A stretch of 63,212 bases of DNA, filler included, from Kipferlia bialata (lineage: Eukaryota): NCBI GenBank assembly GCA_003568945.1. It is 6 parts of 6 records of this genome, joined end to end, with 100 filler letters (N's around TTAATTAATTAA, not from the genome) between each part and the next. Parts side by side here need not be neighbours in the genome. Positions count along the whole stretch, not along the records: positions 52,145 to 57,676 come from BDIP01001029.1; 5 more parts are not named here. One strand, written 5' to 3'. The position numbers and the translations under genes were made by a program. This document shows, in pieces, positions 12,953 through 60,900 of this stretch. The first letter of the stretch is position 1, and each line of letters begins with the position of its first letter. Below the pieces are notes generated by a model. It saw only the letters and a list, made by a program, of their open reading frames with translations, did not search any database and was not told the origin of the DNA.

Positions 12953-13052
12953 NNNNNNNNNNNNNNNNNNNNNNNNNNNNNNNNNNNNNNNNNNNNTTAA
13001 TTAATTAANNNNNNNNNNNNNNNNNNNNNNNNNNNNNNNNNNNNNNNNNNNN
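12953..13052. other. Artificial scaffold-joining spacer N44-TTAATTAATTAA-N44
   Basis: The 12-mer has stops in all six frames. An identical 100-nt structure recurs five times. Confidence 0.97.
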
Positions 13053-13141: not shown

Positions 13142-14014
13142 GCACCAACTTTGGTATCTGGGTCGACCTGGCCACAAGGGCAGTCACGTTCCAGAGGTAT
13201 GGGTACATAAAGTGTATATACTCTCTCTCTCTCTCGCTCTCTTCCACTCTCCACATATACATATACTCCCTCACTCTAGAACACTTGTGCTCACCCTTTC
13301 TCCACCTCTCTCCCTCTTTCTCTATGTATATCTGACTCTCAGGCGCACTGGTGCCCTTGGCCCCCAGGAGGCATTCTACTCATACAAGAAGGTACGGGCT
13401 CTCTCTCTATATATATCTATATATCTATATATAGAGTATAAATTCATGCATTCTTTCCCCCAGATGATCCGCTCCCTGACTGGCATTGCCCACCTCTCTC
13501 TCTCCCTCTCTCTCTCCCTATGTATATTTATATCTTATATCCAGATGATCCCCTCTCTGACTGGCATTGCCCAGACCATGGTGACTGTGATGGAGGAGAC
13601 AGGCACTCTGGCAGGTACTAAAACTATTAAAACAGTATATACTGTATACACAAACATATATTGACTTACCATTAGGCATCCTTGACCCCAACCAGGGCCA
13701 GGAGGGTCTCTCTCTCTCTCTCTCCCTCCCCCCCTCTCTCTCTCTATGTATATATATATACTATAAGTGAGAATGTATATATAGGCTATTGTGCTTACAC
13801 TAGGCATTCTGGATGCTAACCAGGGTCTTGACGGTGCCTCTGTCCTCATATTCGGGGAGTTCTACGGAGGTAGATACAGAGACCAGACTGCTGGCATGAT
13901 CATGGTGCAGGTGAGCGTCTCTATATATCACTATCTCTATATCGGATAATCATTAGCTCTTCTCCCCACGTATATATCTCATAGAATGTGTTACTATCTT
14001 TTCTCTCTCAACAT

Positions 14015-14058
<44 letters not shown>

Positions 14059-17000: not shown

Positions 17001-17735
17001 CCTCCACTATATATACCCTTGGATTATCCGATGAGGTGATGGCCCTTGTCATGGAGGGCATGGACGAGGAGTTCTTCAGGTACTTATGTATATAATATAC
17101 ATGTATATATATGTATTAGTATATATATAATGTGCAATATACTACATATACTACATTGTAGCTGACTAGTCATGGAGGGCATGGACGAGGCATTCTTCAG
17201 GTACTGATGTATGTATATGGATCGGAATTTTCTCTGTATACTGTATAATTCTTCTATAGTCTGATAAGATCGACGTAAGGATGGAGGGCATGGACGAGGA
17301 GTTCTTCAGGTACAGAGTCTGTCACAGACATTCTTATGGATATTTGTATAATATGAACATGAAGGAACCTTCATGTTTGTACTGTGTACTAGTGTACATG
17401 ATATACTTTAGTCCACTCACCCCAGGCTGACTGACAAGACCCAGGCCAAGCTGAAGAAGGTCATCCGCAAGGTATGGGAACATCATTGTTATAATAGATA
17501 CATATAGTATGCTCTTTCACGATATGGTACACTACAATCATATATACAGTTAGTGGTACTTTACTTGTAATGATTACTGGTGCATTTGCTGAAGAAGCTC
17601 ATCTGCAAGACATATGCTGGTCTCTCTCTCTCTATTCATATATACATCTCTATGTGTACATGTCACACCCTCCTAACCCTTCAGGAGGCGGGTGTCTTCG
17701 TTAGGCAGGTCTTCCTGCAGCAGGCCCAGGGTTAG
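13142..17735 (+). CDS. Rnl2-family (T4 RNA ligase 2 / kinetoplastid REL-like) ATP-dependent RNA ligase, 5' partial, multi-exon
   Basis: Exons give GTNFGI (motif I tail; the catalytic Lys exon is missing), FQRRTGALGPQEAFYSY (Ia), IFGEFYGG (III), HYSPTCHFFPFDI (IIIa), WEGVVIRP (IV) and TIMKRK (V). C-terminal TVDRATEIISHHG...IGRVI resembles the Rnl2 C-domain. Stop TAG at 17733-17735. Confidence 0.85.
15202..15440 (+). repeat. Acceptor plus exon-start echo cluster (2 intronic copies) in the RNA ligase gene
   Basis: ag|gccgccttggccttgagcccatccc(c/t)gacaacttct occurs three times. Confidence 0.9.
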
Positions 17736-18163: not shown

Positions 18164-21063
18164 TTAGTGCTTTCTCCTCTTGCCGCTCTTGACATTGGAG
18201 GAACCAGAGTGCTTGCCTAGGGGTCAATGACACACATTCGAATTTGAATACGAAGTACATATACAGAGAGACAGAGAATAGTTATATACAGTGTATTCAG
18301 TGCTTGTCTCTGTCACCTCATCCTTCCTGTCACCGGCCGTATGTATACACACGTATATGTACATATACTATTTCTAAAACATAGTATATACACATATATA
18401 CACATCAACACACCTAGCAGCTCGTCCTCGTCCTTCTTGTCCTCGGCAGCCTCAACCACAAGGTGACGGCCTAGGAGTGAGAGAGAAGTATATACATAGA
18501 TAGAGAGAGAGAGAGACAGAAAGACCACAAGTTGATGGCCTAGGAGTAAGAGAGAGAGGGATGGTGAGAAGGAAGACGACGCATACTTAGCTACATATGT
18601 AGATCTGCAATGGTTATATACATACCATAGAAGTGGGTTCCGTTCAGCATCTTGGCGGCCTCGGCGGCATCCTCAACACTAGAGGTTAGACATAGGTATA
18701 TGTATATAAATATACTGATACATAGATAAAGAGAGAGAGAGAGAAAGCATCTTGGCAGCCTCGGCAGCATCCTCAACACTGGGGGTGATGTCCACATAGT
18801 GATATACATACACATACATATAGGCATATACCGATGTGCACTGACCTAGTGTACTCTGCGAATCCGAATCCCCTCAGCTCTCCGTTCTGCCTCTTTGGGG
18901 CACGCATGGTCTTCAACTCGCCAAAGGAAGAGAGTAACTGACGCAGTTCCTATTGTTAGAGTATATTGATAGAGAGAGAGAGAGAGAGAGACACGCATGG
19001 TCTTCAACTCGCCAAAGGAGGACAGGAGCTGACGCAGTTCCTATCGTTAGAGTATATTGATAGAGAGAGAGAGAGAGAGACATGCATGGTCTTCAACTCG
19101 CCAAAGGAAGAGAGGAGCTGACGCAGTTCCTAATGGTAAGTATTATAGTATTTACGTATATATATGGGAGCGAAAGAGAGAGAGAGAGAGAGAGTATGGT
19201 CTTCAACTCGCCAAAGGAGGACAGGAGCTGACGCAGTTCCTATTGATTAGGTATATAGATATAGATAGGGAGAGAGAGGGAGAGAGAGAGAGAGAGACAT
19301 GCGTGGTCTTCAACTCGCCAAAGGAGGACAGGAGCTGGCGGAGCTCCTATTGATTAGGTTTTCATATATAAATATGTGTGTGTGTGGGACAGAGAGAGGG
19401 AGAGAGATATTGTGCCAAAGGAGGACAGGAGCTGACGCATTTGCCTAACGGATACATATATTCCATTAGATATATATCACTCTGTACCTAAGCATTGGCC
19501 TGGAATGCAATGTTCCTGATAACCAGCTACATACATATTCAGATGTATATATAATAATATATACATATATGTATAATTGATATATACAATAGAAGTATGT
19601 CACTCAATACCTTAGCATTGGCCTGGAATGCAATGTTTCTGATGACTAGCTTGAGGGCACCCTTGGCCTTGGCCGGGGTGGAGGCATCTCTATACATGAG
19701 TATGTATTGTATAGTATCTATCTATCTATACACTCTAGATATGTCAGCAGCAAACAGACAAGTACTTAGTACCTGTTAGTCAGCCTCATCTCCAGGGGGT
19801 TGTCCTTGGGGGCACGCTCCAGCCTCTTGGCGGCACGGGCCTGGGGTGAGGGTATGGACGTATATGCATGATTGTTTGGATATATGCACAACAACAGAGA
19901 GATTCACACAAATGATTACTTTTGATTATGAATATTATACCTTGGCCCTGGCCTCGTCTGTGATGGCAGCCCACTCCAGATACAGGGGGACCTGGGGTAA
20001 GAGGTATATGTATATGGATACAAGGCAATACATGTACACAAATACATATAACGTGAATCGAGTGGGAGAGAGAAGCGCCACAAAGTCGTCCCCAGACAAA
20101 AGTGCGTAAATATAGGTAATACACCCCATATACCTTGCTCTTTCCGAGGGGTGTGAATGCCAGTCTCCTGAAGGCAACCTGGGGGTCAGACGAGTTGTAA
20201 GGGTATGAAAGTAAGAACATGACCCATGAATATGTGTATTAGCGTCTTTCTATGGCTATTGAAGGCAACTATGCAATGTATATGGACACCACTTAGTATA
20301 TGGATATGACATATTGTATATGATAGCAGTACCTTAGCGGACTGAGCATCTGCCATCTCGACAATGACTGTATACTATATCTACATATATACACATACAT
20401 TATCTATATACGTATACAAATAACTATGCACACACATCTATACCTTAGCGGACTGAGCATCTGCCATCTCGACAATGGTCAGAAGGGCACCTGGGGGTAG
20501 ACATATAGAATATAATACATATAGAGATAGAGGTAGAGAGAGGGAGGGAGAGGGAGAGATAGGTTAGAAGGGCACCGGGGGAGGGGGGGGGGGGGGGAGA
20601 GATAAACCTATACAATGGATATAATGCAATATGTATCTCTATACCCACCTGGGCTTGGGTACACTGCACTGACTGCGGCGATTACATATATATTAATACA
20701 TAGTATACATGTAGTGTATATATAGTATATATATAAATAGCAGTATGTACCTGGGCTTGGGTACACTGCACTGACTGCTGCATGCTTGGAGAACATGGCC
20801 TCTGGGGGGTGAGAGATAGATAGAGATAGAGAGATAGAGAGAGTTACACGGAGAGAGAGATGCTTTGGAGGACAAGGCCTCTGGAGGGTGAGAGATAGTT
20901 ATAGGCATATGTATATATATATATATATATATATACAGCGTATGTACCTATGTCGTCTGGTGACACATCCTCTGGGATGTTCTTGCACAGCACAGTGGTC
21001 TTGGACCTATGGTTAACATACACATGTATATATAGAGAGGGAGTATATATACTGAGAATATAT

Positions 21064-21753: not shown

Positions 21754-23730
21754 ATGTGTGTGTGTGTGTGTGTCCTCACCTTGTTAGTGTGGAGTGTGTT
21801 CCATGTGGACTGGTCGGCAGAGCTGTTGAGTCTGGGGTCAGGGATATCTAGTAGTATAAATATACATATATAGATGACACACATATATACAAGTCAGTAC
21901 ATATATATACCAGCTATGGACTGGTCTGCAGAGCTGTTCAGTCTGGACATGAAACGCAATATTACACATATATACATACAAGCACAGTTTCTGTTATGTA
22001 TGTGATCTCTCTCTCTCTATATATATGTACCTGTCTATCCACATACACATACCTCTGCTTCTTCTGCCTCTGCTTGTATGTCAGCTTAGAGTCATCACTC
22101 TCCCTGGGGGCAAGGGCAGCTGTGAGCCTAGCGTTAGATATTTACATGAGCAAATATATATACATACAAATAAATATATAGAACGAGCGAGAGAGAGGGG
22201 GGGGAGAGGGAGAGAACACCCTCCCTGGGGGCCATGGCGGCTGTGAGCCTAAGGTGAGATATATACATACAGGTAGAGACAAAGAGAAAAAGAAGAGAAT
22301 GTCAATCAAGTACAGTAGTACCTGATGATCTTTCCTCCGATGATGTGGCTCTCTGAGAGTGCCTTGACAGCATGCTCAGGCAGCATGAACTGCACAAAGG
22401 CAGAGCCTGGCATTAAGGGTGCAGAGGGAGAGAGAGAGAGAGAGAAAGTATGCTCAGGCAGCATGAACTGCACAAAGGCAGAGCCTGACAATAAGGGTGC
22501 AGAGGGGGGGAGAGAGAGAGAGAGAGAGAGAGAGAGCCTTGACAGCATGAACTGCACAAAGGCAGAGCCTGACAATAAGGGTGTAGAGAGGGAGAGACAG
22601 AGAGAGAGAGTAAACAGTACCTGTGCTGAACTCTGACACTGGGTCGATGATGATGTGGGTACATCACACACATATACACATACACATACACCTCTACATA
22701 GTATGTGTATCTATCTATATAACTATCCATATATATATATCTATCTATATACACACAGTACCTGTGCTGAACTCTGACACTGGGTCTATGATGTGGGCCT
22801 ATTTATAATACATGAATGTATATATGTACAAACTAAATTAACACATTTATCATATATATATATATATATAGGTGTATTACCTGTGCTGAACTCTGACACT
22901 GGGTCTATGATGATGTGGGTGTCACTCACAGGACCATACTTCTCAAAGTGCCTGGGTGTTACATGTGTGTTCAGACACATACTATTACATACACACTGTA
23001 TATACATATATGTGGGTATATACCTCCTCAACACCCCACTGTCTGTGCTCACTGGCAAATGGTACAGCTTCACATTCCTCTATACTATATAATATATACA
23101 CTATACATATGTATATATATACCTCCTCAACACCCCACTGTCTGTGCTGACTGGCAGGTGGTACAGCTTCACATTCCTCTATACTATATTATATATACAC
23201 TATACATATGTATATGTATACCTTCTTAGCACCCCACTGTCTGTGCTGACTGGCAGGTGGTACAGCTTCACATACCTCTATACTATATAATAAATACACT
23301 ATACATATGTACATGTATACCTCCTCAGTACCCCACTGTCTGTGCTGACTGGCAGGTGGTACAGCTTCAGTCTGCCTGTCTCTCCGGCATCGGCAAAGCC
23401 CTCGCCTACATGTAAGGAACATATTTATTACTATAAATATATACATGAATATACTACAATATATACTCAGTCTGCCAGTCTCTCCGGCAAAGCCCTCTCC
23501 TAGGGTAAGAGAGAGTAATATAGAGATATATGCTCCCCGGCATCGGCAACGCCCTCGCATGATTACCAGACAACTACATAGTCACTACACTGTATCACCC
23601 ACAATATTTACACCACTATACTACTATGAACATAGCTGTACCTGACACTGTCACTCCATTGCTCTCCCCCTCCTGGGGTGCCTGTCTGACAGGGGCAGTG
23701 GCTACTTGGACCTAGGGGTAAGTGTATATG

Positions 23731-23798
<68 letters not shown>

Positions 23799-24917
23799 AT
23801 ATGTCTGTCTCACAGGGGCAGTGGCCATCTGGACCTAGGGGTAAGTATCACTTAGACCAAGAATGAGGGATTGGAGATACGACTCCTCATAGAACAAACA
23901 GATCTACATCCACATAATCAAATACATGTGCAATGTATACATAAATACAAATGTATATACATGTACCTCAATCTTCTGGCTCCTCATGTATGTGCTGTTC
24001 AACTCCTTGACAGACCTAGGGGTAAGGAAGAGACAATACGAATGAAGACACGTGGGACTGATAGAGAGAGAGAGAGAGATAGGAATAGATAGGTGCCATT
24101 CAACTCCTTCACGGACCTAGGGGTGAGACGCTAAGTGTATATAATATATATACAAGTTGTATACACTAAGTATTAGTCATTGCATGGTACTCTTCCTTAG
24201 ACTTGGGATATAGATATGAGAGGAGTGGCAAAAGTATATGCACAGTGAGGCAGAGAGAGACAGAGAGATGAATATATGGAGCTCAATTCTTGCCTTGCTG
24301 CTGTCCCTCATTGAACATCATGTATATGGTATATATTGAATATATAGAATGTATGATTAGTATATACATATACAATATAGGTCAATACAGTTATATACCC
24401 TATACTTTCACTATACCTTGCTGCTGCCTCCTCGTCGTTGAATCCAAAGAGACAGACACAAAGTATACATATTCATTATGTATATGTATATATGTCAATA
24501 TAGTCCATCTATATCTATGCCATACCTTGCTGCTGCCTCCTCGTCATTGAATCCAATGAATGCATAACGACGGGACTTTCCATCACTACAGAGTGAGTGA
24601 GAGAGAGGGAGAGACATTAATCAAGAGAGATACAGATCAGAATAGAGAGATCTCAGAGAAAGTACACAGAGCGGTGGTGGTGGGGGGGGGGGGGGGGTAC
24701 TAATACTGGGTCGTCTTCTAGGAATATGCGGCAACACAGGACGTAGGTAAGCGATGGTACAGTGAGATACTCAGAGTGTGAGAGAGTAGAGAGCAATAGA
24801 TACGTACGGTCTACGCTTCACGTAACAGTCTGTGATGGATCCATATGGCGAGAACAGGGCCTTGAGCGCCTTCTCGTCTGCCTGCACGGGCAGATTCTTG
24901 ACAATGACACGGGACAT
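18164..24917 (-). CDS. MRD1: Multiple-RRM ribosome biogenesis protein MRD1/RBM19, multi-exon
   Basis: N-terminal MSRVIVKNLP...DGKSRRYAFIGF, further RRMs (GSAFVQFMLPEHA; AFRRLAF...PLYLEWA; KLVIRNIAFQA...ELRQLLSSFGELKTMR...LRGFGFAEY...THFYGRHLVVE), ending in basic GKRRKH*. Confidence 0.9.
18893..19440 (-). repeat. Acceptor plus exon-start echo cluster (4-5 intronic copies) in MRD1
   Basis: The tag|ELRQLLSSFGELKT block repeats about every 90-110 nt, separated by (GA)n/(TA)n tracts. Confidence 0.9.
23021..23370 (-). repeat. Exon-end plus donor echo cluster (3 intronic copies) in MRD1
   Basis: The KLYHLPVSTDSGVLR|gt block occurs four times at about 100-nt period. Confidence 0.9.
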
Positions 24918-25060
24918 AGCCCCAGTACGCGCAGAGAGAGAGTAGCTACTGAAGATGTGGTACTGTCTTCTCAACTACACCCTTAAGACGTTTTTGCCAA
25001 TCTTGTATCTGCCTTCAATCATGCCTCCGTGACCTATTTTCGGGATTATAGACAGTAGAA
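24918..25060. promoter_or_regulatory. Putative bidirectional promoter between MRD1 and MAK16
   Basis: 143 bp separate the two divergent ATGs. Confidence 0.6.
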
Positions 25061-25919
25061 ATGTCCTCAGGCCAGGACGGAATCATATGGGAGTGCATTA
25101 ACAAGGGCTTCTGCTCTTTTAAGACGAAGACTGCCCGCCAGACCATGTGCAGGAACCCATACAACCTTACCGGTCTTTGCGGCAAGAAGAACTGCCCTCT
25201 TGCCAACTCCCGGTACGCCACAGTCATTGACGAGGACTACAAGGTGTTCCTGTGCATCAGGACACCCGAGCGTGCTCACCTCCCCTCCACCATGTGGGAG
25301 AAGGTTGAGATGCCAGAGGACTACTCTGAGGTATGTGGAGCTATTCAACTTACCCTGTAGTATAGGGTGGTAGTATATATGCGTATATTACATTGGGGTG
25401 GGAGAGTGTAAGTGTGTGTAGCGCGGTACACGCTGCATTTGTTACCAGAGTAAGATATGGTACCGGTACCGATGTGCCTCTCAAGTATGATCTCTATCAG
25501 GAGTGTAACCAATACACTGCCGGATCTGTTTATACTAGATGTATACCTCTGTGGCGTCGCCTGCATCGCATCATACTGACTACTCATTGCATTGGGTTCT
25601 CTGATCACACATACAAGTATCCTTATGTCTCTCTTTCTTCTGTATTTCTGTACTCTTCCCTCACTACTAGGCCCTGAAGCTTGTGGATGAGAAGCTCCAG
25701 TACATGCCAGCATACATCAGACACAGGTAAGAGACATGTGTCCAGATATTTGGTAGTCAAATCGTGTACAATATGGAATATGTGCCTCTCCCGCTCTCTC
25801 CCCCTACTCTCCCTAATTAGTATGTATGTATGTACCTATCTTACCCCAGGTGTAAGCAGAGGCTGACCAAGATCACTGAGATGCACGTGAGGGTCAGGAA
25901 GCTCAGGAAGAAGATCGAG
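25061..25919 (+). CDS. MAK16: MAK16 60S biogenesis protein (3' partial, 3 exons visible)
   Basis: IIWECINKGFCSFK...CRNPYNLTGLCGKKNCPLANSRYATV...TPERAHLPSTMWEK...ALKLVDEKLQY...CKQRLTKITE. Confidence 0.95.
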
Positions 25920-25926
25920 GTGGGAT

Positions 25927-25979
<53 letters not shown>

Positions 25980-25985
25980 CATATA

Positions 25986-46695: not shown

Positions 46696-49210
46696 ATGTC
46701 CTCGTACTCTCCGCTGAGCCTCTCTGGCCCCTACACCCAGGCGGACAGGGAGCGTGACCGGGAGCGTGATGTCATGCGTGACATTGAGAATGGGGTGGTG
46801 CCAAACAGGGTGGGGGAGAGGGACTTCCGCAGCACTGCTCCTCTCTCTGCGTCCCACTCGCTCTCCCTGGCCAAGCCTATCGGTAGTCTCTCTGGTAGCT
46901 TTGGCGCACCCAAGCAGCAGCCTCTGTATGACATGGAGGAGGAGGCGCTGAGGGCCCAGATAGCAGTGCTCACAGGTATAGGGAGGTTTCTATATACAGG
47001 GCCACGAGCTCTCTAGCTGCATTGGAAGTATAACAATCAGTGTGTGTACCCCCCCCCCCCCCCCCCCCCCCCCCCTCCCCCCCCCTCCCTCTAGTCTTTN
47101 NNNNNNNNNNNNNNNNNNNNNNNNNNNNNNNNNNNNNNNNNNNNNNNNNNNNNNNNNNNNNNNNNNNNNNNNNNNNNNNNNNNNNNNNNNNNNNNNNNNN
47201 NNNNNNNNNNNTTTTGTGGGGGGGCTCCCCCCCCCCCCCCCCCCCCCCCCCCCCCTTCCCCCCCACTGGATGGATACCCTTCATGTTTTCCCCTCTCACC
47301 CCTAGGTGCCTTCCTCTGCCCCACCCTCAGTGCCCTCAAGTCCCACAGCCCAGTGGTACGCATAGTGTATTATACATGCTGTTATTTGTGTTGTCCCCTT
47401 CGTTGACTGAATGTGGTTGATACCACATCTCCACTCTTTACCTCTCCCTCTCTCCCTCCCTTACCCCTCCAGACTGGTGCCAGGTGTGTCATAATATGAT
47501 ATACAAGAGTACTAATATCTATTGTTCCATTAGCTGAGTCATATCATTTAGTAGTTTCCCCTCTCCCCCTCCCTTACCCTTCCAGACTGGTGCCCGGTGT
47601 GTCATCCTGGCACCCACCAGAGAGCTGGCAGTCCAGATCGGCATTGTGGCCAGAAAGATGGTCAAGTGAGTACATTACCACTATTCTCTAGTTTGATCCA
47701 TTAGTGATATCCCATACTCTGTACTGACCCGCTAGGTACACTGACCTCCGTGTGTGTCTGCTGGTGGGAGGTGACTCTCTCTCCAACCAGTTCAGTGCAC
47801 TGTCCGGCAACCCAGGTGCATATGGAGTATTGTGTTGTATAGTGTATTGTGACCCCCTCCCACACCACTCTCTCTCTCTCACCTCCAGACATCATCGTTG
47901 CCACCCCTGGTCGTCTCACCCACATCATGGACGAGACCCCAACCTCTCTGTCCCAGGTACATAACCATGAACTAATGCTGTATGGTCATACTGAGTGCAG
48001 TACTTGATCATACAAATACATTGGTTATACTGATACTTCGTCACACTGGTGTAACTGTCACTGATCCCAGGTCCAGTACATGATCATGGATGAGGCAGAC
48101 AGGATGTTCGAGCTTGGTGAGTGGTATATGGTATAGGATACCATAGTATATGTATATATACCTGACCCCAGCCCTGCGTGACCAGGTCATCATTGTGTAT
48201 TATGTCTCTCTATTTATGTATATACCTATGCACCCCCATACCCCCACCTCATCCCCAGCCCTGCGTGACCAGGTCAGCACCATCCGTGATGCCATGGGTA
48301 CCAACGTGCAGACCCTGCTCTTCTCTGCATCCATGCCCAGCACCCTGGCAGACTTTGTCAGGGCAAAGCTCAGAGAGCCAGCCGTCATCAGGCTAGATGC
48401 AGGTGTCAATTATATATACTATACTATATACATATATACATGATATTATACATATGTCAGGGCAAAGCTCAGAGAGCCAGCCGTCATCAGACTGGACGCA
48501 GGTACATTACACTACCCTTTATACCCTATATATATACGCTCATCAGACTGGACGCCGGTGGGGAGAGGCTGTTACTCTAGTTGGTATTATATATATACTA
48601 TGTGTGTATTGAGGCTCACCCCAGACACCAAGATCCCAGAGACCCTCTCCCTCCAGTACATGACAATCAGTGCTGGTGAGAACAAGGTATGCACGCATAT
48701 ATTTGGATGATCATATTTATACCTGTGTACCTCTACCCGCCAGAGTACTGCCACTGTCCTATATATACCTACCTGTATACCTCACCCCCAGGTAGCTGCC
48801 CTGCTCCTCCTGCTCCAGTCCCCCTCCCAGGCCATGCCCGTCACACCCATACCCGCAGACAGCAGGGTCATCATATTCACAGCAACCAGGTATCATGGTG
48901 TCATATTCACACCCATAATGTATCGGTATGGTGCCTCTCTGTTCCAATATGGATCTTCGGGAAGTCTGCTTTTGTACTGTCCCTCCCTCACCCCCAGATA
49001 CCACGTTGACTATCTGACCGCTGTTCTGAGGAGAGAGGGCATCTCCGCGGTCCCCATCTATGGATCACTCGACCAGCAGGTTAGACACACATTTATATGC
49101 ATGCTACAATATGTTGTCATCTACACTGTCTCACCCCAGGCCCGTTCTGCTGCTGTGAATGGGTTCAAGACCAACCAGTACAGGTGCCTGGTCACAACAG
49201 GTAAGCATGG

Positions 49211-49263
<53 letters not shown>

Positions 49264-51923
49264 GTATCTCCCTCACCCCCCAGATGTCGCTGCCCGTGGT
49301 GTGGATATCCCAGATGTGGAGTATGTCATCTGTTACGACATGCCTGCCAGTCCCAAGGTATAGATAGTGAATATATATACACACCAAACTGTTCTGAGCC
49401 ATTTCTCTCTCCCCCCCCCCCCCAACCCTAGGTGTTTGTCCACCGTGCCGGTCGTGTAGCCAGGCAGAACAAGAGCGGTCTGTGTCTGTCCATCGTGACC
49501 CCCGAGGACCTGCCCTACCTCTGTGACACCACGCTGTTCCTGGCCAGGCCCCTGCAGCCATGCACTGAGGCTCAGGTGGGATATATCTATACATATATAT
49601 ATATGTATGTATATACACCTCATACCCTAGATACTATTCCCTACCTCTCTCACCATTAGAATGGATGCAAGGACCTGTCCTTCTGGCTGACCAAGGCGGG
49701 TAGGAAGGGGGTGTCTGAGGGTGCCATTGGGGCAGTGCCCCAGTGCTTCCTCGACATCATACAGGTACATCCTAACTTGCGTGCTCTGTGGGGTTTATCC
49801 CCCGATACTCTATCATCTCTCTCTGGTGTATACTCTACCCCCCAGCCCACCATCGACCGTGCCATGTATTCTTTCTCTATATATATATTCCAATCTCTTC
49901 CTGATCTATACTGTAAACCCTGTGCACCTACCCCAGCCCACCATCGACCGTGCCCTGGATGACCCCGAGGTGGCCAAGATGCGTAAGAGCGTCAACAACT
50001 CCATGATCAGGTATACACACCCACTCAGAGTACTCCCTATGTATACGTGTGCATGTATCTGACCCCCAGGTACCGCAAGACCCGCCCCACCGCCTCCAAG
50101 CCTGCCCTGACCAAGAGCCACTCCATCATGGACGGCGGCATCCCCATGCACCCCCTGTTCCTCAGCTACGAGAGCATCACAGGGCCATCCATCGCTAGCC
50201 TCAGGTGCATACATCTACATATACATGAACTCTCATATATGTATATATATATGATATATGTACCCTCTTCCTCACCCCCAGGAGTGTGCGTCCCACCCAG
50301 TCCATCCTAGAGGTGGGCAGCAGCACCACAGGGCAGGGCGAGATGTCAAAGCTCATCATGCAGACAAGGTATGATAAATAGATTGACCAGGGATTGTGTA
50401 TATATAACATGTATATGCATATAGGTGTGTGTATGTCAAAGCTTTTCATGCAGACAAGGTATTGTATACATTGGTATTTACATGTTGTATTTGCTATACT
50501 TGATATCATACTGGCACCCGATGTAGATGTTAGAATTCCTGCTGACCCCAGGCGTATGGAGATGGACAAGCGCAATGAGCGTCTGACTGGTTTGAGGGAG
50601 CAGGCATCCAAGGTATATATGCATTCATACATACATATATATGTATGGTACTGACCCCCAGGTTATGGCACAGAAGAGGAGCATTGAGTCCCTCCAGGCC
50701 TCCCTGGGAATAGGGAGTGGCAAGTACCAGGGGTCAGGCTTCATCAGTGACAGACCAGAGGACAAGCAGAAGGTACCAGTATATATATATGTATATATGT
50801 ATATTTATATATATAAGAATATATTAATATTATATTTATATATACTAGTATAGACCCTGACCCCCCAGGAGATTGACGAGGCCGGGTATGCCCTGGACAA
50901 CGGGTCCAAGCAGAGCAGACAGGACTCCCTGACCTCTGCCATCATGGACCTGCTGCCAGAGGACCACGAGACACTGACCGGGAATTTGAAGAAGGTATGT
51001 ATATGTGGTATATACATATATATATACTATACTATACTATACTAGGTAGAGTATATAGTATATATGTCTACGAGACACTCACAGGGAACCTCAAGAAGGT
51101 AGGGTATATACAGTGTGTATATACATATATAGACTGGGAACCTCAAGAAGGCATGGAAGGGGTACAGAGATTGTATATACATACATATATGTTTAACCCC
51201 CAGGGCCTTGTGACGAAGTGGGACGCCAAGTCCAAGCAGTATGTCAAGTTCGACAGTGCCCAGCGGACAGCCGAGAAGGCAGCCAAGAAGAAGCAGGCGC
51301 CACTCCTCACGCAGACAGACTCAGGTACGTATATAGAGTATATTGTATATACCTCTATGTCAGTATATGTATATATATATACACACACATTCATAAGGCC
51401 CCACTCCTCACACAGACAGACTCGGGTATGTATATATAGTATATTATATATATATAAATATATATATATATAATATACCTCTATGTCTGTATATGTGTAT
51501 ATATACACACATTCATAAGGCCACACTCCTCACACAGACAGACTCAGGAATATATATATATATATTTATATGTATTAATAGTGTATCAATATACTTAACC
51601 CCAGGTGGCTGGGCCGTGACCAGGGCCAGGGTCAAGGGCAACCTGTACGACCAGTGGAAGAAGAGGACAAACAGGGAGATCCAGCGGACAGGGGTCAGTG
51701 AGGAGCCTGACACCGGCCTCACCGCCCAGGAGCACAAGCTGCAGGGTCTGGGAAGGCATGCAAAGAGGAGGTTCCACATTGAGGTGGGTGAAGACAGCTG
51801 TCTATACTCTCTATCTCTCTTACTGTGTATCATTATGTCTCACTCTCTAGGAGCAGAAGCACGGCAGGCAGGCTAAGGGCCCCCTCAACAGTGGCACAGC
51901 CACAAAGACTAAGGCTGATACAG
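46696..51923 (+). CDS. DBP10: DEAD-box RNA helicase DBP10/DDX54 (interrupted by gap 47100-47211; 3' partial)
   Basis: APTRELA, GGDSLSNQFSAL, ATPGR, DEADRMFE, LLFSAS, IFTATRYHVDY, YGSLDQQAR, TDVAARGVDIP, FVHRAGRVAR, plus DBP10 C-terminal WDAKSKQYV and LYDQWKK. Confidence 0.9.
47100..47211. other. Scaffold gap flanked by C homopolymers
   Basis: N run between C tracts. The helicase Q-motif and motif I exons are missing, so the true gap is probably larger. Confidence 0.9.
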
Positions 51924-51995
51924 GTGGGTTGTGATATCCTACTCTATTGAAGTGTGTACTCTCTTGGGTATCCCCCCCAGTTTTCCTTCTCTCTC

Positions 51996-52031
<36 letters not shown>

Positions 52032-52044
52032 CCGACCGCCCCCC

Positions 52045-52144
52045 NNNNNNNNNNNNNNNNNNNNNNNNNNNNNNNNNNNNNNNNNNNNTTAATTAATTAA
52101 NNNNNNNNNNNNNNNNNNNNNNNNNNNNNNNNNNNNNNNNNNNN
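52045..52144. other. Artificial scaffold-joining spacer
   Basis: N44-TTAATTAATTAA-N44. Confidence 0.97.
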
Positions 52145-52195
52145 TTTTTATAAATATCCCTCCCCCCCCCCCCCCCCCCCCCCCCCTCACTCTAG

Positions 52196-54520
52196 GTCCA
52201 TGACCAACTGCCTCTACAACCTTGAGGTCGAGGACCCCTACCACAACGTGCTCAGGGAGCTCGGATTCGAGATGGAGACTATCCAGGTATATATAGCATA
52301 CAATATATATACTGTTCACCATATCTCTCCCTCTATCTCTATCTCTCTCTCTCTCTCTATATATATAGTATATGTGTCTCTCTGACCCCAGGGAGAGGAG
52401 TCTGACGCCGGTCTCGGCAACGGAGGTCTCGGACGCCTTGCCGCCTGTTTCATGGACTCTCTGGCCTGCCTTGACATGCCCGCCTACGGATACGGACTCA
52501 GGTGCATATATACATATGAATATGATAATACGAGCGGGATTTGAACCCACTGACCCCCAGGTACCAGTACGGTATGTTCCGCCAGACCATCGAGGACGGA
52601 TACCAGAAGGAGAACCCCGACTACTGGCTGACTCACGGAACCCCCTTCCCCCAGGTACAGCATGTCTCTCTCTCCCTCCCTACACCCTCAATACACCGTC
52701 TGTACTTACACTCCAGGTCGAGCGTCTCGACATCACCTTCCCCGTCCGCTTCTACGGACACACCGTTGCCCACCCCGTTGAGGGTACGTACATTGTCTCT
52801 CTCTCTCTCCCTTCTCAATATTTATATGCATTCCTCGGGAATCGAACCCACGCCACTACCACATCCATCTGACCTCCAGGCACCAACAAGAGCAGGTGGG
52901 GCTGGGAGGGTGGCAGCACCGTGCAGGCCGTCGCCTACGACTGTCTCTGCCCCGGACACCACACCAACCACGTTGTCCCCATCAGGTACTGTACTCTCTC
53001 TCTCCCTACACCCTTCTCTTCTTCTCTCCCTCTAGCCCCTTATGTCAGGCTGTGGGCTGCCCGCCCCTCCACTGAGTTCGACCTCAGCGTCCACAACTCC
53101 GGAAACTTCCTGAGGTACATTAACGCAACCTCTCTATCTCTATCTCTTTTTAGGCTCTCTATATATTTGCTATTATCTAACTTGCAGGTCCGTCGCCGAG
53201 AAGGCCGACTCTGAGAACATCACCTTTGTGCTCTACCCCAACGACTCCACCGAGGAGGGTACGTATACATACATACATATTAGAAAGTGCATGTAGTGGG
53301 AATCGAACCCAGGTCCTCCTAACCCCCAGGCCGTCTCCTCCGTCTCAAGCAGGAGTACTTCTTCGTCTCTGCCTCTCTGCAGGATATCCTCAGGAGGGCC
53401 GAGAGGATCGAGTGCCCCTTCTCCAAGCTCGGTAAGTATATATATATATACATATACATATACATAGAGGGAATTGAACCCAGAACCATTGATGAATGAT
53501 AGCCTTACCCTCAGGTGAGAAGTACGCCGTTCAGCTCAACGACACCCACCCCGCCCTTGGAGTGCCCGAGCTCATGAGGTACCCTCTCTCTCTCTCTCTC
53601 GTAAGATAATAGTGCAGAGAGTGGGGATCGTACCCACGCCCATCTAATCCCAGGCTTCTCCTTGACGTCCACGGCTTTGAGTGGGAGGAGGCCTGGGAGG
53701 TTGTTGGATCCGTCTTCAGCTACACCAACCACACCGTGCTCCCCGGTATGTACTGTCTCTCTTTATCTTTCTCTCTCTCTCTCTTAATGATCTCTCTGAC
53801 CTTCAGAGGCCCTCGAGAAGTGGCCCCTCTCTTACTCCCTCTCTCTCTGTCTCTCTCTTTCCATATATATTTGATTCTATATATCTCCCTCCTACTTTCC
53901 CTGACCCCCAGAGGCCCTCGAGAAGTGGCCCCTCTCCATCCTGGTCCACCTTCTGCCCAGGTACCAAAGTCTCTCTCTCTCTCTCCCTCAATTGTATATG
54001 TATAGTATTCTTGGATGGTATTGTCTAACCTCAGGCACACTGAGATCATCCTCGAGATCAACAGGAGGTTCCTCGCCGTTGTCGAGGCCAAGTGGCCCGG
54101 TGACATCGAGAGGTATGCATTACTATGCACTAAGTGGGGCTCGAACCCAGGACATTGTGCTCACCATCCAGGCTCCAGCGCATGTCCCTTGTGCAGGAGG
54201 GCTCCCAGAAGATGGTCAGGATGGCCAACCTCGCCATTGTGGCCTCCCACAAGGTACTCTCTCCATCTCTCTCTGTGTGTGTGTGTGTATGTACATCTCT
54301 CTTATTCCCAGGTGAACGGTGTTGCCGCCCTCCACTCCCAGATCATCAAGGACACCATCTTCAAGGTACACACCTGCTATTTACTCAATATAGATGTAGT
54401 GTCTGTCTCTCTATATACTTACTGTATAATGCCTCTTACCCCCCAGGACTTCTACGAGCTGTGGCCCACCAAGTTCATCAACGTCACCAACGGAGTCACC
54501 CCCCGTAGGTACAGTCCTCC

Positions 54521-54563
<43 letters not shown>

Positions 54564-56435
54564 AATTCATATATCTTATGCCTTCCTGACACTCAGGTGG
54601 ATCTCCCAGTGCAACAGGCCCCTTGGCGAGTGGATCACCGAGACCCTGCAGTCCATGAAGGTCATCAAGGTAAGGACAGCTATAAGGCAGAGGCTACAAT
54701 AGTGTGACACGAGTGGGAATCGAACCCATGGACTCTGACATCCAGGAGGAGCACGAGTGGCTTCAGGACATGTCCCTCCTCAAGAACCTCCTCAAGCTCG
54801 AGTCTGACGGTACGTGTATATATATTGTATCTGGCTGGAGTTGAACCCACACCTCTCTCACCCTTAAGCCGACACCCTCGACGCCGTGCTCGACATCAAG
54901 AGGCAGGGCAAGGAGAGGCTCTGCGACTACATCGAGGAGCACTGCGGAGTGACCGTGTCCCCCGACATGCTCATCTCCACCCAGGTACCCTCTCTCTCTC
55001 TCTCTCTCTAGACCCTTATTTCTCTCTCTCTCTCTCTCTTACCCTAGGTGAAGCGCATCCACGAGTACAAGAGGCAGCTCCTCTGCCTCCTCGGACTTGT
55101 GCACCAGTACATGGCCCTCAAGGTATAATCATACATATACATGTACACTGTTCATATATCGTAAATGTATATTATTTACTATATGCAACTCTCTTACCCC
55201 CTAGGAGATGTCCCCCGAGGAGAGGAAGGAGAAGGCCGTACCCAGGTGCCACCTCTTTGCCGGAAAGGCTGCCCCCGGATACGCCAGGGCTAAGGTATGA
55301 AACACAATAATATACTAGCAGGGAATCGAACCCACATCCTCCCCCCTCTCATCCCAGGTCATCATCAAGATGATGAACTGCATCGCTGACGTGCTCAACA
55401 ACGACCCCGAGACCTCCGACTACCTCAAGCTCGTGTTTGTCCCCAACTACTGCGTGTCCAACGCCGAGATCATCTTCCCAGGTATAGTATATACACATAT
55501 TCTCTCTCTCTAAACCCTTATTCACACCCAGGCACTGACGTCTCTGAGCAGATCTCCACCGCTGGCCACGAGGTAATCTCTCTCTATATATATATATATT
55601 ATAGTGCATGACAATGTTTTGTCCTCTGTAGGAATCGAACCCTGACCCCCAGGCCTCTGGAACTGGTAACATGAAGGCCTCCATGAACGGAGCCATCATC
55701 ATCGGAACCCTCGACGGAGCCAACGTTGAGATCCGTGAGGAGATTGGAGAGGAGAACATGGTACGCCATTAATATGTATTCCCAGGGATTCGTACCCACG
55801 TCTCTTCAGTTCTGACACCAGGTCATCTTTGGTGCTGAGAAGCACGAGGTGCTCGCCGTGCGTGACACCTACAACAACGGCTCCTCCACCCAGCTCTCCG
55901 AGTCCTTTGCCGCTGTCCTCGACGCCGTTGACGGGGGCATGTTCGGACACGCCGACCTCTTTGCCGTACGTTTCTCTCTCTCTCTCTCTCTTACTAATTA
56001 GTCTCTTTCTAATGCATCTTGCTCAGATTCTGACCCTTCAGAAGATCACCGGTGAGCTCCGCTCCGGCCGTGACTTCTACCTCCTTGCCCACGACTTTGA
56101 CGGATACATCCAGGCCTGGGAGGAGATGTTCAACAGGTATAATATATATATATACATCGATCCACTTAGTATTGTTATATATTAGTATTAGATTATTGTA
56201 TTATTATTATTATATATATATATATATATATATATTGTTTTACGGATACATCCAGGCCTGGGAGGAGATGTTCAACAGGTAATACTACACATTTCCTCTT
56301 CCTTATAAGGAAATATGCGCAGAGTGGGAATCGAACCCTCACCCTCAGGTTCGACGACCAGGATGCCTGGGCCAGGTCCATGCTCCACTCCATCGCCAGG
56401 ATGGGCAAGTTCAACTCTGACCGTTCCATCCAGGT

Positions 56436-56466
<31 letters not shown>

Positions 56467-56724
56467 GTATCTCAATGTAACTCTATCTATATGTATGTAT
56501 TTACTGTCTAGTGTGTATACTTACCCCTCAGGACTACGCCAGGGACGTGTGGGGCATCAAGCCCCAGGGCCACGAGGTCAAGGCTAGGTACAGTCACACT
56601 GTCTCTCTCTCTCCTTCTAAACCCTTTTACTCTCTTTCACTCTCTCTCTCTCTCTACCCTTTATTCACCCTTTAGGAAGGCCGCCCTCCGCTCCGCCAAG
56701 CCCGTCTCCCTCTTCGGCCAGTAA
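52196..56724 (+). CDS. GPH1: Glycogen/alpha-glucan phosphorylase (GT35), 5' partial, 28 exons visible
   Basis: [116 protein letters not shown], and the PLP site [18 protein letters not shown]. Stop at 56722-56724. Confidence 0.97.
52526..56340 (-). promoter_or_regulatory. Twelve intronic 25-nt B-box / tRNA T-arm-like elements, antisense to the phosphorylase gene
   Basis: Plus-strand core GGRNTYGWACCC in elements at 52526, 52827, 53288, 53459, 53613, 54126, 54705, 54826, 55311, 55620, 55775 and 56316 (25 nt each). The reverse complement reads GGGTTCGATTCCC-like. Confidence 0.75.
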
Positions 56725-57319
56725 GTGCCGCAACGACTAGAGACACCACATGCACTCTACCACAGGGGAGAGAGAGAGTAGGGGTGGTGTCGACAGAGTC
56801 AACTTGTAGTGTTACTGACCCCTTTTCAATTTCCGACCACTCGCGGGATAGCCCCCTAGACCCCTTGTTCTACCACGGCTAGTGTATGCGCTCAATGCAT
56901 ATTAACATGCCATACGCTGCCGTGCCCGCTGTGTCATATTATTAATAAATGTTAATCTGTATTCAATGATTGCTGGTTGGTTAACTCTGTTTTATGAATC
57001 AACCCCATAGGAGTAGGGGTATAAGCGTGGTGGCTCCACTGTCTCATATACTAAAGGTTCACAGATACGTATTGTGTAACTAGAGAGAGTAATCGAAGAC
57101 TCCAAGGCCTATAATTGTGGCTGAAGGCTTTAGTCGGCTAAGAGTACCAGTGTAAGGCATATAGTAGTACTATCATCCTAATATGCTATCACCCTAGCAG
57201 GTACCCTAGTACCTGCTGGTTCCACCTGAACCCCTATTCTCTGGTATAGCAAAAAGCAACTCACATTCTTGTGCCGCTTCACCCAGGTGTCTGTGGTCAC
57301 TGCGCCTGCCATCCACACC

Positions 57320-57429
57320 CTGCCTAACAGAGCACCCACTGCGCCTGTAGTACTGGTACACACTCAGTTGACTCTGCCTAACAGAGCACCCACTGCGCCT
57401 GTAGTACTGGTACACACTCAGTAGACTCT
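57320..57429. repeat. 54-nt direct tandem duplication (2 copies, 1 mismatch)
   Basis: ctgcctaacagagcacccactgcgcctgtagtactggtacacactcagt(t/a)gact at 57320 and 57374. Confidence 0.9.
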
Positions 57430-57626
57430 GGAGTAGCAGCACTAGCAACCATAGGGCAGCTGGCGAGTGAGTGTTATAGAGAGAGTGTTATTGAGAGAGA
57501 GAGAGTGTGTGTGAGAGATGGACCCTCTGCTTGACCCAACAGTGTGTGCATGCCTGGATCTGAGGTACAGAGGACTGCAGTAGTCTAGTATATACATATA
57601 TGTATTGCATGACTCCTTCTCTCTTA

Positions 57627-57669
<43 letters not shown>

Positions 57670-57676
57670 ACACCCC

Positions 57677-57776
57677 NNNNNNNNNNNNNNNNNNNNNNNN
57701 NNNNNNNNNNNNNNNNNNNNTTAATTAATTAANNNNNNNNNNNNNNNNNNNNNNNNNNNNNNNNNNNNNNNNNNNN
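57677..57776. other. Artificial scaffold-joining spacer
   Basis: N44-TTAATTAATTAA-N44. Confidence 0.97.
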
Positions 57777-57793
57777 GCGGCAGCGCGGGAGGT

Positions 57794-57836
<43 letters not shown>

Positions 57837-57901
57837 GAAGTGGTCACTGTATAGACAATTGCTTGCAGGTGCTAAACGTATACTCCAAGAGGCACACTCA
57901 C

Positions 57902-60900
57902 CTAGCAGCAGCAGCAACAGTGCCTCAGTTCTCTTGACAGGCGCCAGGGAAGACCCTATATCAGAGTCCCTCCTTCTGTGCCTGTCCCTGTCTCTCTCTC
58001 CGCCTCTCTCTCCGTCTCTCTTGCTCAGCACTATGTTGTAGTCTATGCTGTTGACCACCACCTCTAGCGTGGCTGGGTCCTGCGCAGCCTCCACTATACA
58101 GCTAAGGGCAGTGCGAGTAACCTGGGTGAGAGGTGTTAGCATGTGGTGAACAGTGTATATCCATATATGTGGTGGTCATTGCCGCACCTCGTCTGCCCTT
58201 GCTCCCAGCAGCTGCGTATTGAGGAGCCCAATGGTCCAGGTCTTGGTGTCCCTGTATGTCAGTGCATACCCACTACAAAGACATACACATATATATACAC
58301 GACCCTCTAACACCCCCCCCACCTGCATGGGTTGACCATGAGTATGGTCCTGAGGTGGAGGATGGCCAGGTACTTGGTGGCCCTCGACACATGGGTCTCA
58401 CTCATGGTAAGGACCTGGGGTGGGGCAGGGGGGGCATACATTAGGGTGACTACATCTACCTATCCACATCTATAGCCATATACGTTCCAGTGTATATATC
58501 TGCATGTCCCCCTGACCTTCTCGAGCAGTGTGGCCGGGCACTCTGTGTGTGGACTGGGCTGGAGGGACACAGTCATGGCCCTGATCAGGTACTGTCTCCT
58601 GCTGGTCTCACTCACAGCGGAGAGGAGACCCCACATGGTGTGCTGGGGGTTGGGATGAAGTGTTGTAGTTGGGCAGTAAAACTTGAATATGTAGGACATC
58701 AGTACTGTACTGCCCCTACCTTCCTGCTGTCTATGGTGACACTGGTCCTCATCATGTAGTCAGACCCACGCCTAGGGGTGAGGAGGGTATATATGGATAT
58801 ATATAGATACCAATACAGAGTCGGTGTGACATGTACAAATATATATATGTATGTCCGAACACGCATGGTAACCTTCAGCATTGCAGTATACATACACCCA
58901 TAAACCCCACCTTGTGAGCAGGAGTGCATTGATCACACTGAAGAAGCATCTGGCGTGTGTGGTCCTGACCCCCATGCTACTCAGCATGAGTCCCTCCTCA
59001 CTCTCGGCACTGCGTCTAAGGGCGTAGGAGGGGGTCTTGGGGGTCTGGCCAGGGCTGGGGGACCTGTTCTGGTAGGACAGGGGACTGTCTGTACCCTGGC
59101 CCTGTCCTGCACTAGTCCCTGCCCCCCCAGCCCCTGATGCCTCTGCGGTATGTGTTAGGGTCTCCTCTGCCTGTAACACAGCATGCAGACAGGAGAGGAG
59201 GAAGGGGCCAAAGCGGGACTGGGAGAGCACAAGGACTCCGGTGTCGGAGGAACCTGGGGTCATGGGGGATGGGGGTATAGAGACTGTGAAGTATTAACAC
59301 AAATATTACGTATATACTCCATCTATGGAGACCACATGATAACACTACCCTCCTACCTAGCAGGGTGAACAGATCGAGCACTGTCCTGACTAACATGGGA
59401 CTGGCCGGACTGAGGGCCTGCACGAAGAAGCCCTTATCACTATCCATCAGATACTTGAACAGGGCCTTGAACACACCCTTGCGCACAGACAGCTCGAGGT
59501 ACTCAATCTCTTGCCAGGGGCCTAGGGTGGGTGGTCTAAACACATGTGTATATCAGTAGTTCAGTGCATCACTGGTACTGATACAGCTATATATGCAAAA
59601 TGTTACCAGATGTCTATATGGTACATCGCATGTCTCACACAGCGCAGTATGTATACACCAGTCCAATTATGACTCCCTCTTTACCTATCAACAGGTCGGA
59701 CACCGCGGCCCAGTCTGCATTGTAGGGGTCCTGGAGGTCAGATAATACAATACACACTAAGAGATGTATGCGTACACAGCCTTCCATACACTAACATCAA
59801 ATTCACTCATACACTACCCAGTTTTACACACCTGTTTGAGCCCAGACCTCTTCAACAGTGCCAAGAACTCTTTCCTACGGGTTAGAAGGACACATTGCCC
59901 ATCAGAATACTGTCCCGGCATCTCATTAGTATAGATAGTAACGTTATGGCATACCTCCCCATGTGCCCGACCAGCAGGTGCCGCACAGAGTGACCCTGAG
60001 GGTCAGACACAGTACAGAATAGAGAGAGGGTGACATATATAGAATGGACACACTGTGGGTCTCCATGCTACAGGTATACTACGCGGACACCCACCTGTGT
60101 GTCTGCCACCCCATGTCCCGGTAGTGACTCCTGCAGCACCCTCTCACTCACACTCATGCACAGCTTGCCGCCTCCCTTGCCCTTGGAGTCAGACACCCGC
60201 GAGATATCAACCTGCGTCAGAGAGGAGTATCTCTTGTCATACTCATATGTACATGTTTACTGATAGTACCACTATAGATATACAAGTCTAACCCAAACCT
60301 GTCTGGGCAGTCCGTACACGGGGTCTGCGTCCTTCTCTCTCTCCCTCTCCCTGAGGTACTGTATGTTCCTTAGCAGCAGCGCCGATCTGAATGACAGGCT
60401 GTGTCTGTCGCTAAGGGAGGCAGCCTCTGAGACCAGCCTGGGGAAGGCGTTAAACTGAGACCTGTACTCCCCGGGGAGGAGCTCGTCTGCCATGGCGAGT
60501 ATGATGTACACTAGGATGGTGGCCTCATGGGACACATCTGCACACTGCACTGCCACAGGCACCCTGCCCATAGAGGGAGAGAGAGAGCCCATGCCCAGGG
60601 CAGGGGAGGAGGGGAGGGGCATCCCGTAGTGGGAGTCGGGGGGGTTGAGGCAGAGGGAGGTGTCGGCTGGTGGGACGGCACTGGCCAGCCGGATCAAGAC
60701 ATCAAAGAGACCAGCCTTGAGGAAGGACAGTAACACGACAGACAGGTAGCTGTTGACCAGATTGTGTCTGGGGTGGGGTGAGGTGGACAAGTCAAAGTCT
60801 ATAAAGACGATATGTATATGAGGACAAGAGTGTGCTTAGGTGTCAAGGTAGAATCTTCTTCCGGCCTCTATTAGATATATATAGCTATGACTCGTGACAC

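Follow-up and report, generated by a model that had tools for sequence, protein, structure and literature searches.

Antisense extended B-box-like elements in twelve introns of a Kipferlia bialata glycogen phosphorylase gene, putative solo TFIIIC-type sites

Introduction

Kipferlia bialata is a free-living fornicate, and Giardia is one of its fornicate relatives. The B-box is a motif of tRNA genes, and TFIIIC is a tRNA transcription factor. In the 63,212-nt stretch of K. bialata DNA analysed here (the window), one protein-coding gene raises the question of why twelve of its introns should each carry, on the opposite strand, an element that resembles an extended B-box and the 3′ part of a tRNA. 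Such elements could be DNA sites for TFIIIC or another protein, signals read in the pre-mRNA, or remains of tRNA-derived sequences; the pattern of conserved and variable positions bears on all of these.

The host gene and its introns

The host is a glycogen phosphorylase gene on the plus strand, with short exons and GT-AG borders in 27/27 visible introns; its 5′ end falls beyond the N gap at 52045-52144. The exon at 55822-55965 is 100% identical to P0001, which is labelled as Kipferlia bialata glycogen/starch phosphorylase, and the 27-intron model, spliced from 52200, translates into P0001 exactly. P0001 in turn matched Pfam PF00343 at 6.3e-290 and yeast glycogen phosphorylase at 2.2e-218.

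The introns of the phosphorylase gene are spliced. Contig X2 record 9, for which an RNA origin is a guess, aligned to exons only, and by its coordinates the distance from exon 2 to the last exon is 2168 nt, equal to that in the spliced model. Contigs from a second study (X3), which are on record as RNA, covered both flanking exons at three introns, one of which bears an element (55761-55821; X3 record 14). The X2 contig reaches ~220 nt farther 5′ than the first exon of the window, so the gene start and the first introns lie outside the visible part.

Codon use in the gene is extremely biased (Nc 26.9, GC3 0.86), which suggests high expression; this is read solely from codon bias, because expression levels cannot be ranked from the RNA contigs. 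When the whole window was scanned with the gene's own codon weights, which is partly circular, most of the top-scoring stretches lay within the phosphorylase gene. A search of prokaryote genomes with P0001 kept 80 of 477 loci, all of them intron-less and of 45-51% identity, and gave no intron-bearing relative.

Twelve copies, one gene, one orientation

The gene and the twelve elements are located as follows.

52197..56724, plus strand: glycogen phosphorylase gene (Pfam PF00343), 28 visible exons and 27 GT-AG introns
52526..52550, minus strand: extended B-box copy 1, intron 52502-52560; adjoins branch-point motif
52827..52851, minus strand: extended B-box copy 2, intron 52784-52879
53288..53312, minus strand: extended B-box copy 3, intron 53259-53329
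53459..53483, minus strand: extended B-box copy 4, intron 53432-53514
53613..53637, minus strand: extended B-box copy 5, intron 53579-53653; A at position 55
54126..54150, minus strand: extended B-box copy 6, intron 54113-54171
54705..54729, minus strand: extended B-box copy 7, intron 54670-54745
54826..54850, minus strand: extended B-box copy 8, intron 54810-54868
55311..55335, minus strand: extended B-box copy 9, intron 55295-55357
55620..55644, minus strand: extended B-box copy 10, intron 55573-55652; overlaps branch-point motif, A at position 50
55775..55799, minus strand: extended B-box copy 11, intron 55761-55821; A at position 55
56316..56340, minus strand: extended B-box copy 12, intron 56137-56348; overlaps branch-point motif, A at position 50

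Positions within the element are given in tRNA numbering. The initial annotation had described twelve copies on the minus strand, in twelve introns of one gene. All of them were confirmed, each 25 nt long and each in its own GT-AG intron. Its invariant final A (A73, 12/12 copies, preceded by C in 9/12 and by T in 3) was also found, and the 7-nt spacers do differ as it had proposed, positions 66-71 being alike at 0.30 vs 0.27 in a shifted-register control. The intron of copy 12 also contains a duplicate of the preceding exon's end, at 56238-56281.

Element-bearing introns account for 12 of the 27 visible ones, and the remaining 15 have at least three mismatches to GGTTCRANYCC on either strand. 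Leave-one-out PWM scores of the twelve copies ranged from 18.6 to 28.6 bits, while the next-best site in the 63 kb window reached 13.3. Exact GGTTCRANYCC occurred ten times on the minus strand of the gene, and neither on its plus strand nor elsewhere in the window; no further copy was present outside the gene in these 63 kb. Depth differences are confounded by microsatellites and acceptor motifs and give no count of further copies. Introns outside the gene were called with a splice-site PWM, which gave 105 calls vs 18-33 on three shuffles and hence an estimated ~80 real introns. The element is absent from these ~80 introns elsewhere in the window (12/27 vs 0/80, p=7e-9, where 80 is the estimate).

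All twelve copies are antisense to the gene (p=0.0005). They lie 121-579 bp apart, at a density of about one per 345 bp, and their distance is variable on both sides, with 13-47 nt from the nearest donor to the copy and 8-31 nt from copy to acceptor; a mild shift toward the intron 3′ side was found (p=0.027). A (CT)4+ tract was present in 3/12 element-bearing introns vs 11/15 others (p=0.02, post hoc). A metagenome scan for donor, motif and acceptor yielded no relative's locus among 118 of ~170 stretches: as we read them, nearly all the matches were prokaryotic tRNA genes in antisense, a few looked like other tRNA-related repeats, and none was a contig rich in microsatellites that carried several copies outside tRNAs. 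The motif evidence thus covers one gene in one genome.

Conserved and variable positions

Read in the antisense direction, the copies follow the consensus G46-N-Y48-S-T50-GGGTTCRANYCC-CNCT-NNN-TRYA73. They fit the B-box consensus GGTTCRANYCC exactly in 10/12 cases and with one mismatch in 2/12. Eight core positions (51-54, 56, 58, 61 and 62) showed 0/96 changes, vs 23/72 at positions 49, 50 and 63-66 (p=3e-10). The changes within 51-62 were G57A in three copies, four at position 59, and T60C and T55A in two copies each; positions 57, 59 and 60 are the R, N and Y of the B-box consensus. Seven of the eight core positions were part of the search pattern, which makes ascertainment a concern for this contrast; the gap in scores is the control, and at the decay rate of the flanks only 4.6% of neutral copies would retain all eight core bases. 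No half-decayed copy was found among the 27 introns, in which the scores are bimodal, and together with the core intact in 12/12 this argues against neutral relics. By this substitution pattern, the copies are very probably under purifying selection.

The motif also extends beyond the B-box on both sides. It reaches 5′ to Y48 (11/12) and G46 (10/12), and 3′ of it an AT-rich tail at 74-83 is shared in register (identity 0.38 vs 0.31, p=0.006). Single positions were compared with 120 element-free intron ends at matched distances, of which about a fifth are probably false calls. Against this splice-site-matched null, A73 (12/12, p=2e-6), Y72 (12/12, 1e-5) and Y48 (11/12, 1e-4) were enriched, and C65, C63, T50, G51 and T80 also stood, while G46 (p=7e-4) did not survive correction for ~220 tests and T70 (1e-3) was likewise weaker. 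An extension 3′ of the B-box, comprising C63, C65, Y72 and A73, is therefore conserved, as is characteristic of ETC sites. The exceptions at T50 (two) and Y48 (one) are the three copies that meet the branch-point motif, as is expected if both signals are under selection. A Y that seemed conserved at position 33 (12/12) was discounted, since that position falls on the acceptor AG and branch A.

Relation to tRNAs and tRNA-derived elements

The 5-nt stem and 7-nt loop that the initial annotation had recognised hold for the GGG/CCC core and not for the outer pairs. Pairs 49-65 and 50-64 are kept in 4/12 and 7/12 copies; pair 51-63 is lost in one copy (11/12) and the two inner pairs in none (12/12). 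The same five pairs are kept in 47/47, 46/47, 47/47, 46/47 and 47/47 real tRNA arms (47 distinct arms from 91 real tRNAs, apparently prokaryotic and a sample biased by the motif pattern). For the outer two this amounts to 11/24 cells vs 93/94 (p=5e-10). The four copies with C49 all have C65 and never G65; with outer pairs both broken and non-covarying, identity rather than pairing is what is kept. G51, invariant in the copies, is another base in 20/47 real arms.

Other tRNA features were sought as well. A CCA end next to position 73 occurred in 0/12 copies, an A-box-like match upstream in 1/12, about the chance rate, and no T4 run, the Pol III terminator, on the minus strand of the gene. ARAGORN predicted 0 tRNA genes, and Rfam (E<=10, 50000-58000) gave no match to a tRNA family; its matches in that interval were microsatellite-driven miRNA ones, other sub-threshold ones and three tmRNA T-loop matches of 13-15 nt, far below threshold. 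A tRNA-derived SINE is not indicated either, as there is no A-box and the similarity is confined to ~32 nt with no shared body. Nor do the introns resemble introners, which are alike over their whole length and have fixed ends: here the flanks are unrelated and the end distances vary.

A putative array of solo TFIIIC sites

Our leading explanation, to which we give an even chance, is that these are solo extended antisense B-boxes, putative tauB/TFIIIC sites of ETC-like type, which aid open or tethered chromatin of a probably highly expressed gene. The tauB half of TFIIIC would dock at the antisense intronic B-boxes about every 345 bp and would not start Pol III transcription; the array would help to keep the chromatin of this Pol II gene, whose expression is probably very high, open or tethered. 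In a codon-optimised gene the introns would be the one part left free to hold such sites. Sense copies might, speculatively, be purged because of a T-loop in the pre-mRNA or cryptic sense Pol III transcription. We infer TFIIIC as the reader from the motif; the role in chromatin openness or tethering is speculative.

Solo docking of TFIIIC is favoured because the kept positions match the bases read by tauB, including those beyond the B-box on both sides. Human tauB base contacts map to G53, T55, C56, G57, C61 and C62 (PMC11811891, in which C69 corresponds to C56). In the copies, G53, C56, C61 and C62 are present in 12/12, G57 in nine with A in the other three, and T55 in 10/12. C56G is reported to lower yeast binding 370-fold (PMC11811891). 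On the 5′ side, K223 of yeast tau138 contacts the template G pairing with position 48, as mapped by that paper's own offset of one, and on the 3′ side yeast tau91 contacts bases conserved at ETC loci; tauB can dimerise (PMC11724288).

Among the three readings that the initial annotation had proposed, a TFIIIC- or ETC-type site is the best fit to the substitution pattern. A simple orientation-free insulator does not predict 12/12 antisense, and strict orientation needs an extra assumption under a simple DNA docking site too. Several further points count against the TFIIIC reading. T55, a contacted base, is altered in two copies; the known yeast ETC sites are intergenic and not intronic (PMC3395662); a dozen tightly bound complexes could act as a roadblock in a highly transcribed gene; and the link between array and high expression is based on one gene. 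TFIIIC subunits were reportedly found by BLAST in Trichomonas and not in Giardia (PMC3369914). In the full-text literature, with few subscription papers covered, we found no report of TFIIIC in Kipferlia or of intronic B-box arrays in protist coding genes, and TFIIIC terms were absent from three text supplements of the K. bialata genome paper.

Alternative explanations

The element could instead be read in the pre-mRNA, where its purine-rich sense strand (GGG...GAACCC) would be an intronic splicing or stability signal, with a protein, or an RNA that is tRNA-derived or tRNA-like, as its reader; we regard this as unlikely. The use of a single strand in 12/12 copies agrees with it, as do the mild 3′ bias and a position always 8-31 nt from the acceptor, and splicing efficiency would be most important in a highly expressed 27-intron gene. 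A divergent spliceosome would also fit, as K. bialata is reported to have only 87/174 spliceosomal proteins and no snRNA candidates found (PMC6679479). However, the distance is fixed neither to the donor nor to the acceptor, the sense strand forms only weak hairpins (-1.6 to -7.4 kcal/mol), the same gene splices 15 introns without the element, and the variation obeys B-box degeneracy rather than RNA pairing: G>A, which wobble would tolerate, occurs in 0/36 cases at 51-53 vs 3/12 at 57 (p=0.013). The same substitution bias speaks against pairing with tRNA 3′ fragments, as the initial annotation had envisaged, and the lack of CCA (0/12) and the best-kept positions 51-58, which lie largely outside a short 3′ fragment, also disfavour it. 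That each copy is such a target, or the captured 3′ end of a different tRNA, is the least probable of the explanations and a very improbable one. The geometry of tRNA positions 49-73 is matched and the spacers vary among copies, but the broken outer pairs, with C49 facing C65, and the invariant G51 contradict an origin by capture of intact tRNA 3′ ends, and neither ARAGORN nor Rfam detected a tRNA.

Intronic retroposons usually show an antisense bias, with which the orientation of the copies agrees. The copies might be functionless relics of a tRNA-derived repeat, a SINE head or an intron-making element, that spread in the gene, e.g., by reverse splicing or gene conversion. One consensus with a tRNA-like G46, Y48 and T-arm and the AT-rich tail in register would fit such relics, and the 3′ half of a tRNA, taken in antisense, can resemble a branch point followed by an acceptor, as in tRNA matches that were pre-selected by the search pattern. 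We consider this improbable, given that all eight core bases are kept in 12/12 copies against the 4.6% expected at the flank rate, with no half-decayed copy, and that the spacers at 66-71 are unrelated and a shared body, A-box and CCA are lacking. The variable acceptor distance (8-31 nt) counts against it too, and likewise argues against a fixed intron-making element in the earlier idea that tRNA-derived insertions might have seeded the introns; a relic origin could nevertheless apply to sites now kept by selection. Equally improbable in our estimate is that the B-box reader is lineage-specific or reduced and differs from canonical six-subunit TFIIIC, the motif being its DNA site and acting directionally to activate Pol II or to signal a pause. 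This reading shares the sequence evidence with the TFIIIC reading, the strict orientation suggests a directional effect, and the reported absence of TFIIIC in Giardia (PMC3369914) would be in line with it, as would the mammalian Polr3e MIR, a precedent for an antisense-only effect, though a transcribed one (PMC5358760). On the other hand, there is no candidate protein, the BLAST failure in Giardia may reflect divergence, and with the tauB contact positions matched, 48 included, tauB itself is the simplest explanation.

Wider meaning

If TFIIIC docks at these sites, in a dense one-strand array within a protein-coding gene, the factor would have been put to a new use, and ETC-like biology would extend to metamonads, where Giardia reportedly lacks TFIIIC (PMC3369914). 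Introns, of which this 51 Mb genome has 124,912 (PMC5874029), would gain a concrete function for their sequence. The role of TFIIIC-only sites is described as still an open question (PMC12409998), and a dozen independent copies in one gene and one orientation, under apparent selection, offer a natural test of the effect of solo B-boxes on Pol II transcription or splicing. A more far-reaching proposal, which we hold only tentatively and think rather doubtful, is that intronic oriented B-box arrays mark the most highly expressed Pol II genes throughout the genome of this intron-rich fornicate. TFIIIC or a reduced reader would then act in the gene body as an activator, as a tether or as a factor for pausing at splice sites. 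If true, the tRNA promoter code would be encoded in introns and used in a strand-specific way. Whether such arrays are a curiosity or a general rule depends on how many genes carry them.

Comparison with known systems

The phosphorylase array is ETC-like by sequence, and we claim no membership of the ETC class. As in yeast ETC and S. pombe COC sites, each copy is a solo B-box with no A-box that is not a tRNA gene (PMC3395662, PMC12409998). The yeast ETC site is described as 23 bp comprising the B-box and a 3′ extension of ~10 bases, to which our copies are likened by the presence of a conserved extension and not base by base; it tethers loci and acts as a barrier (PMC3395662). Yeast ETC sites occupy eight intergenic loci, mostly between divergent genes (PMC3395662), whereas the phosphorylase array consists of twelve intronic copies in one coding gene, all antisense and 121-579 bp apart.

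The Polr3e MIR similarly is a Pol III-type element that lies antisense to a Pol II gene, inside one of its introns, and in a reporter it had an effect in antisense orientation only (PMC5358760). It is a single SINE that has both A and B boxes, is transcribed and reduces expression (PMC5358760). The phosphorylase sites, by contrast, are many, lack A-boxes and terminators, and lie in a gene of extreme codon bias. TFIIIC-bound SINEs near inducible Pol II genes are reported to influence gene position and expression; these are repeat-borne and promoter-distal (PMC3744447), while the phosphorylase sites are intragenic and have no repeat body. In a protist, B-boxes are also over-represented outside the tRNA context in the Dictyostelium rDNA cluster, with 22 per 44 kb (PMC5391098). 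That cluster lies on extrachromosomal rDNA, and several of its B-boxes are accompanied by A-boxes and were made by segment duplication (PMC5391098); its density is about six times below the 12 per 3.8 kb of the phosphorylase array.

Possible sources of splice sites in introns

Within many introns of the window, exon starts or ends are duplicated in tandem together with their splice site, as partly decayed copies numbering up to about six per intron, and the spacers between them are microsatellite-rich. These intron copies look like the outcome of a pervasive junction-duplication process, which could move splice sites or make new ones. In the glycogen phosphorylase gene such duplication is rarer, with two cases.

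Junction duplicates in introns of the window (positions)
13460-13560
14050-14370
15215-15440
16880-17310
18890-19440
22380-22560
23000-23370
51280-51550
53793-53936
56096-56281

Some bacterial tRNA genes, when their 3′ half is read antisense, present a B-box complement that runs straight into a branch point and an acceptor, both matching the Kipferlia type perfectly. This arrangement, for which the search pattern itself selected, was seen in many loci of the metagenome scan, L004, L006 and L017 among them, and is much like that of the phosphorylase intron 55573-55652. Judged from sequence, an antisense tRNA fragment could be the supplier of a 3′ splice site.

A (CT)n tract, common in phosphorylase introns free of the antisense extended B-box element (11 of 15; 52287-56675), is mostly missing where the element is present (3 of 12).

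Strain variation and other genes in the window

In the phosphorylase exons, RNA contigs from a second study (X3) show single-base differences from the window at 52944 and 55441, at a depth of 3-4. These point to a near-identical strain in the second data set, but may be errors.

Linkers of 100 N carrying a 12-nt AT palindrome lie at 12997, 26030, 39060, 52089 and 57721, the first four at intervals of about 13 kb. The window probably consists of separate contigs joined end to end, and genes adjoining across linkers are therefore no evidence of synteny. An intron-rich helicase gene adjoins the phosphorylase contig; no element was found in its introns, and its one B-box-like match, at 49162, is exonic and without Y60.

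Other genes in the window
47300-52000, plus strand: intron-rich helicase gene (Helicase_C match on one exon; DEAD-box by eye)
24780-25980, divergent pair: plus-strand Ribosomal_L28e-family gene (family match), presumably MAK16-like, and minus-strand RRM-like gene (by eye)
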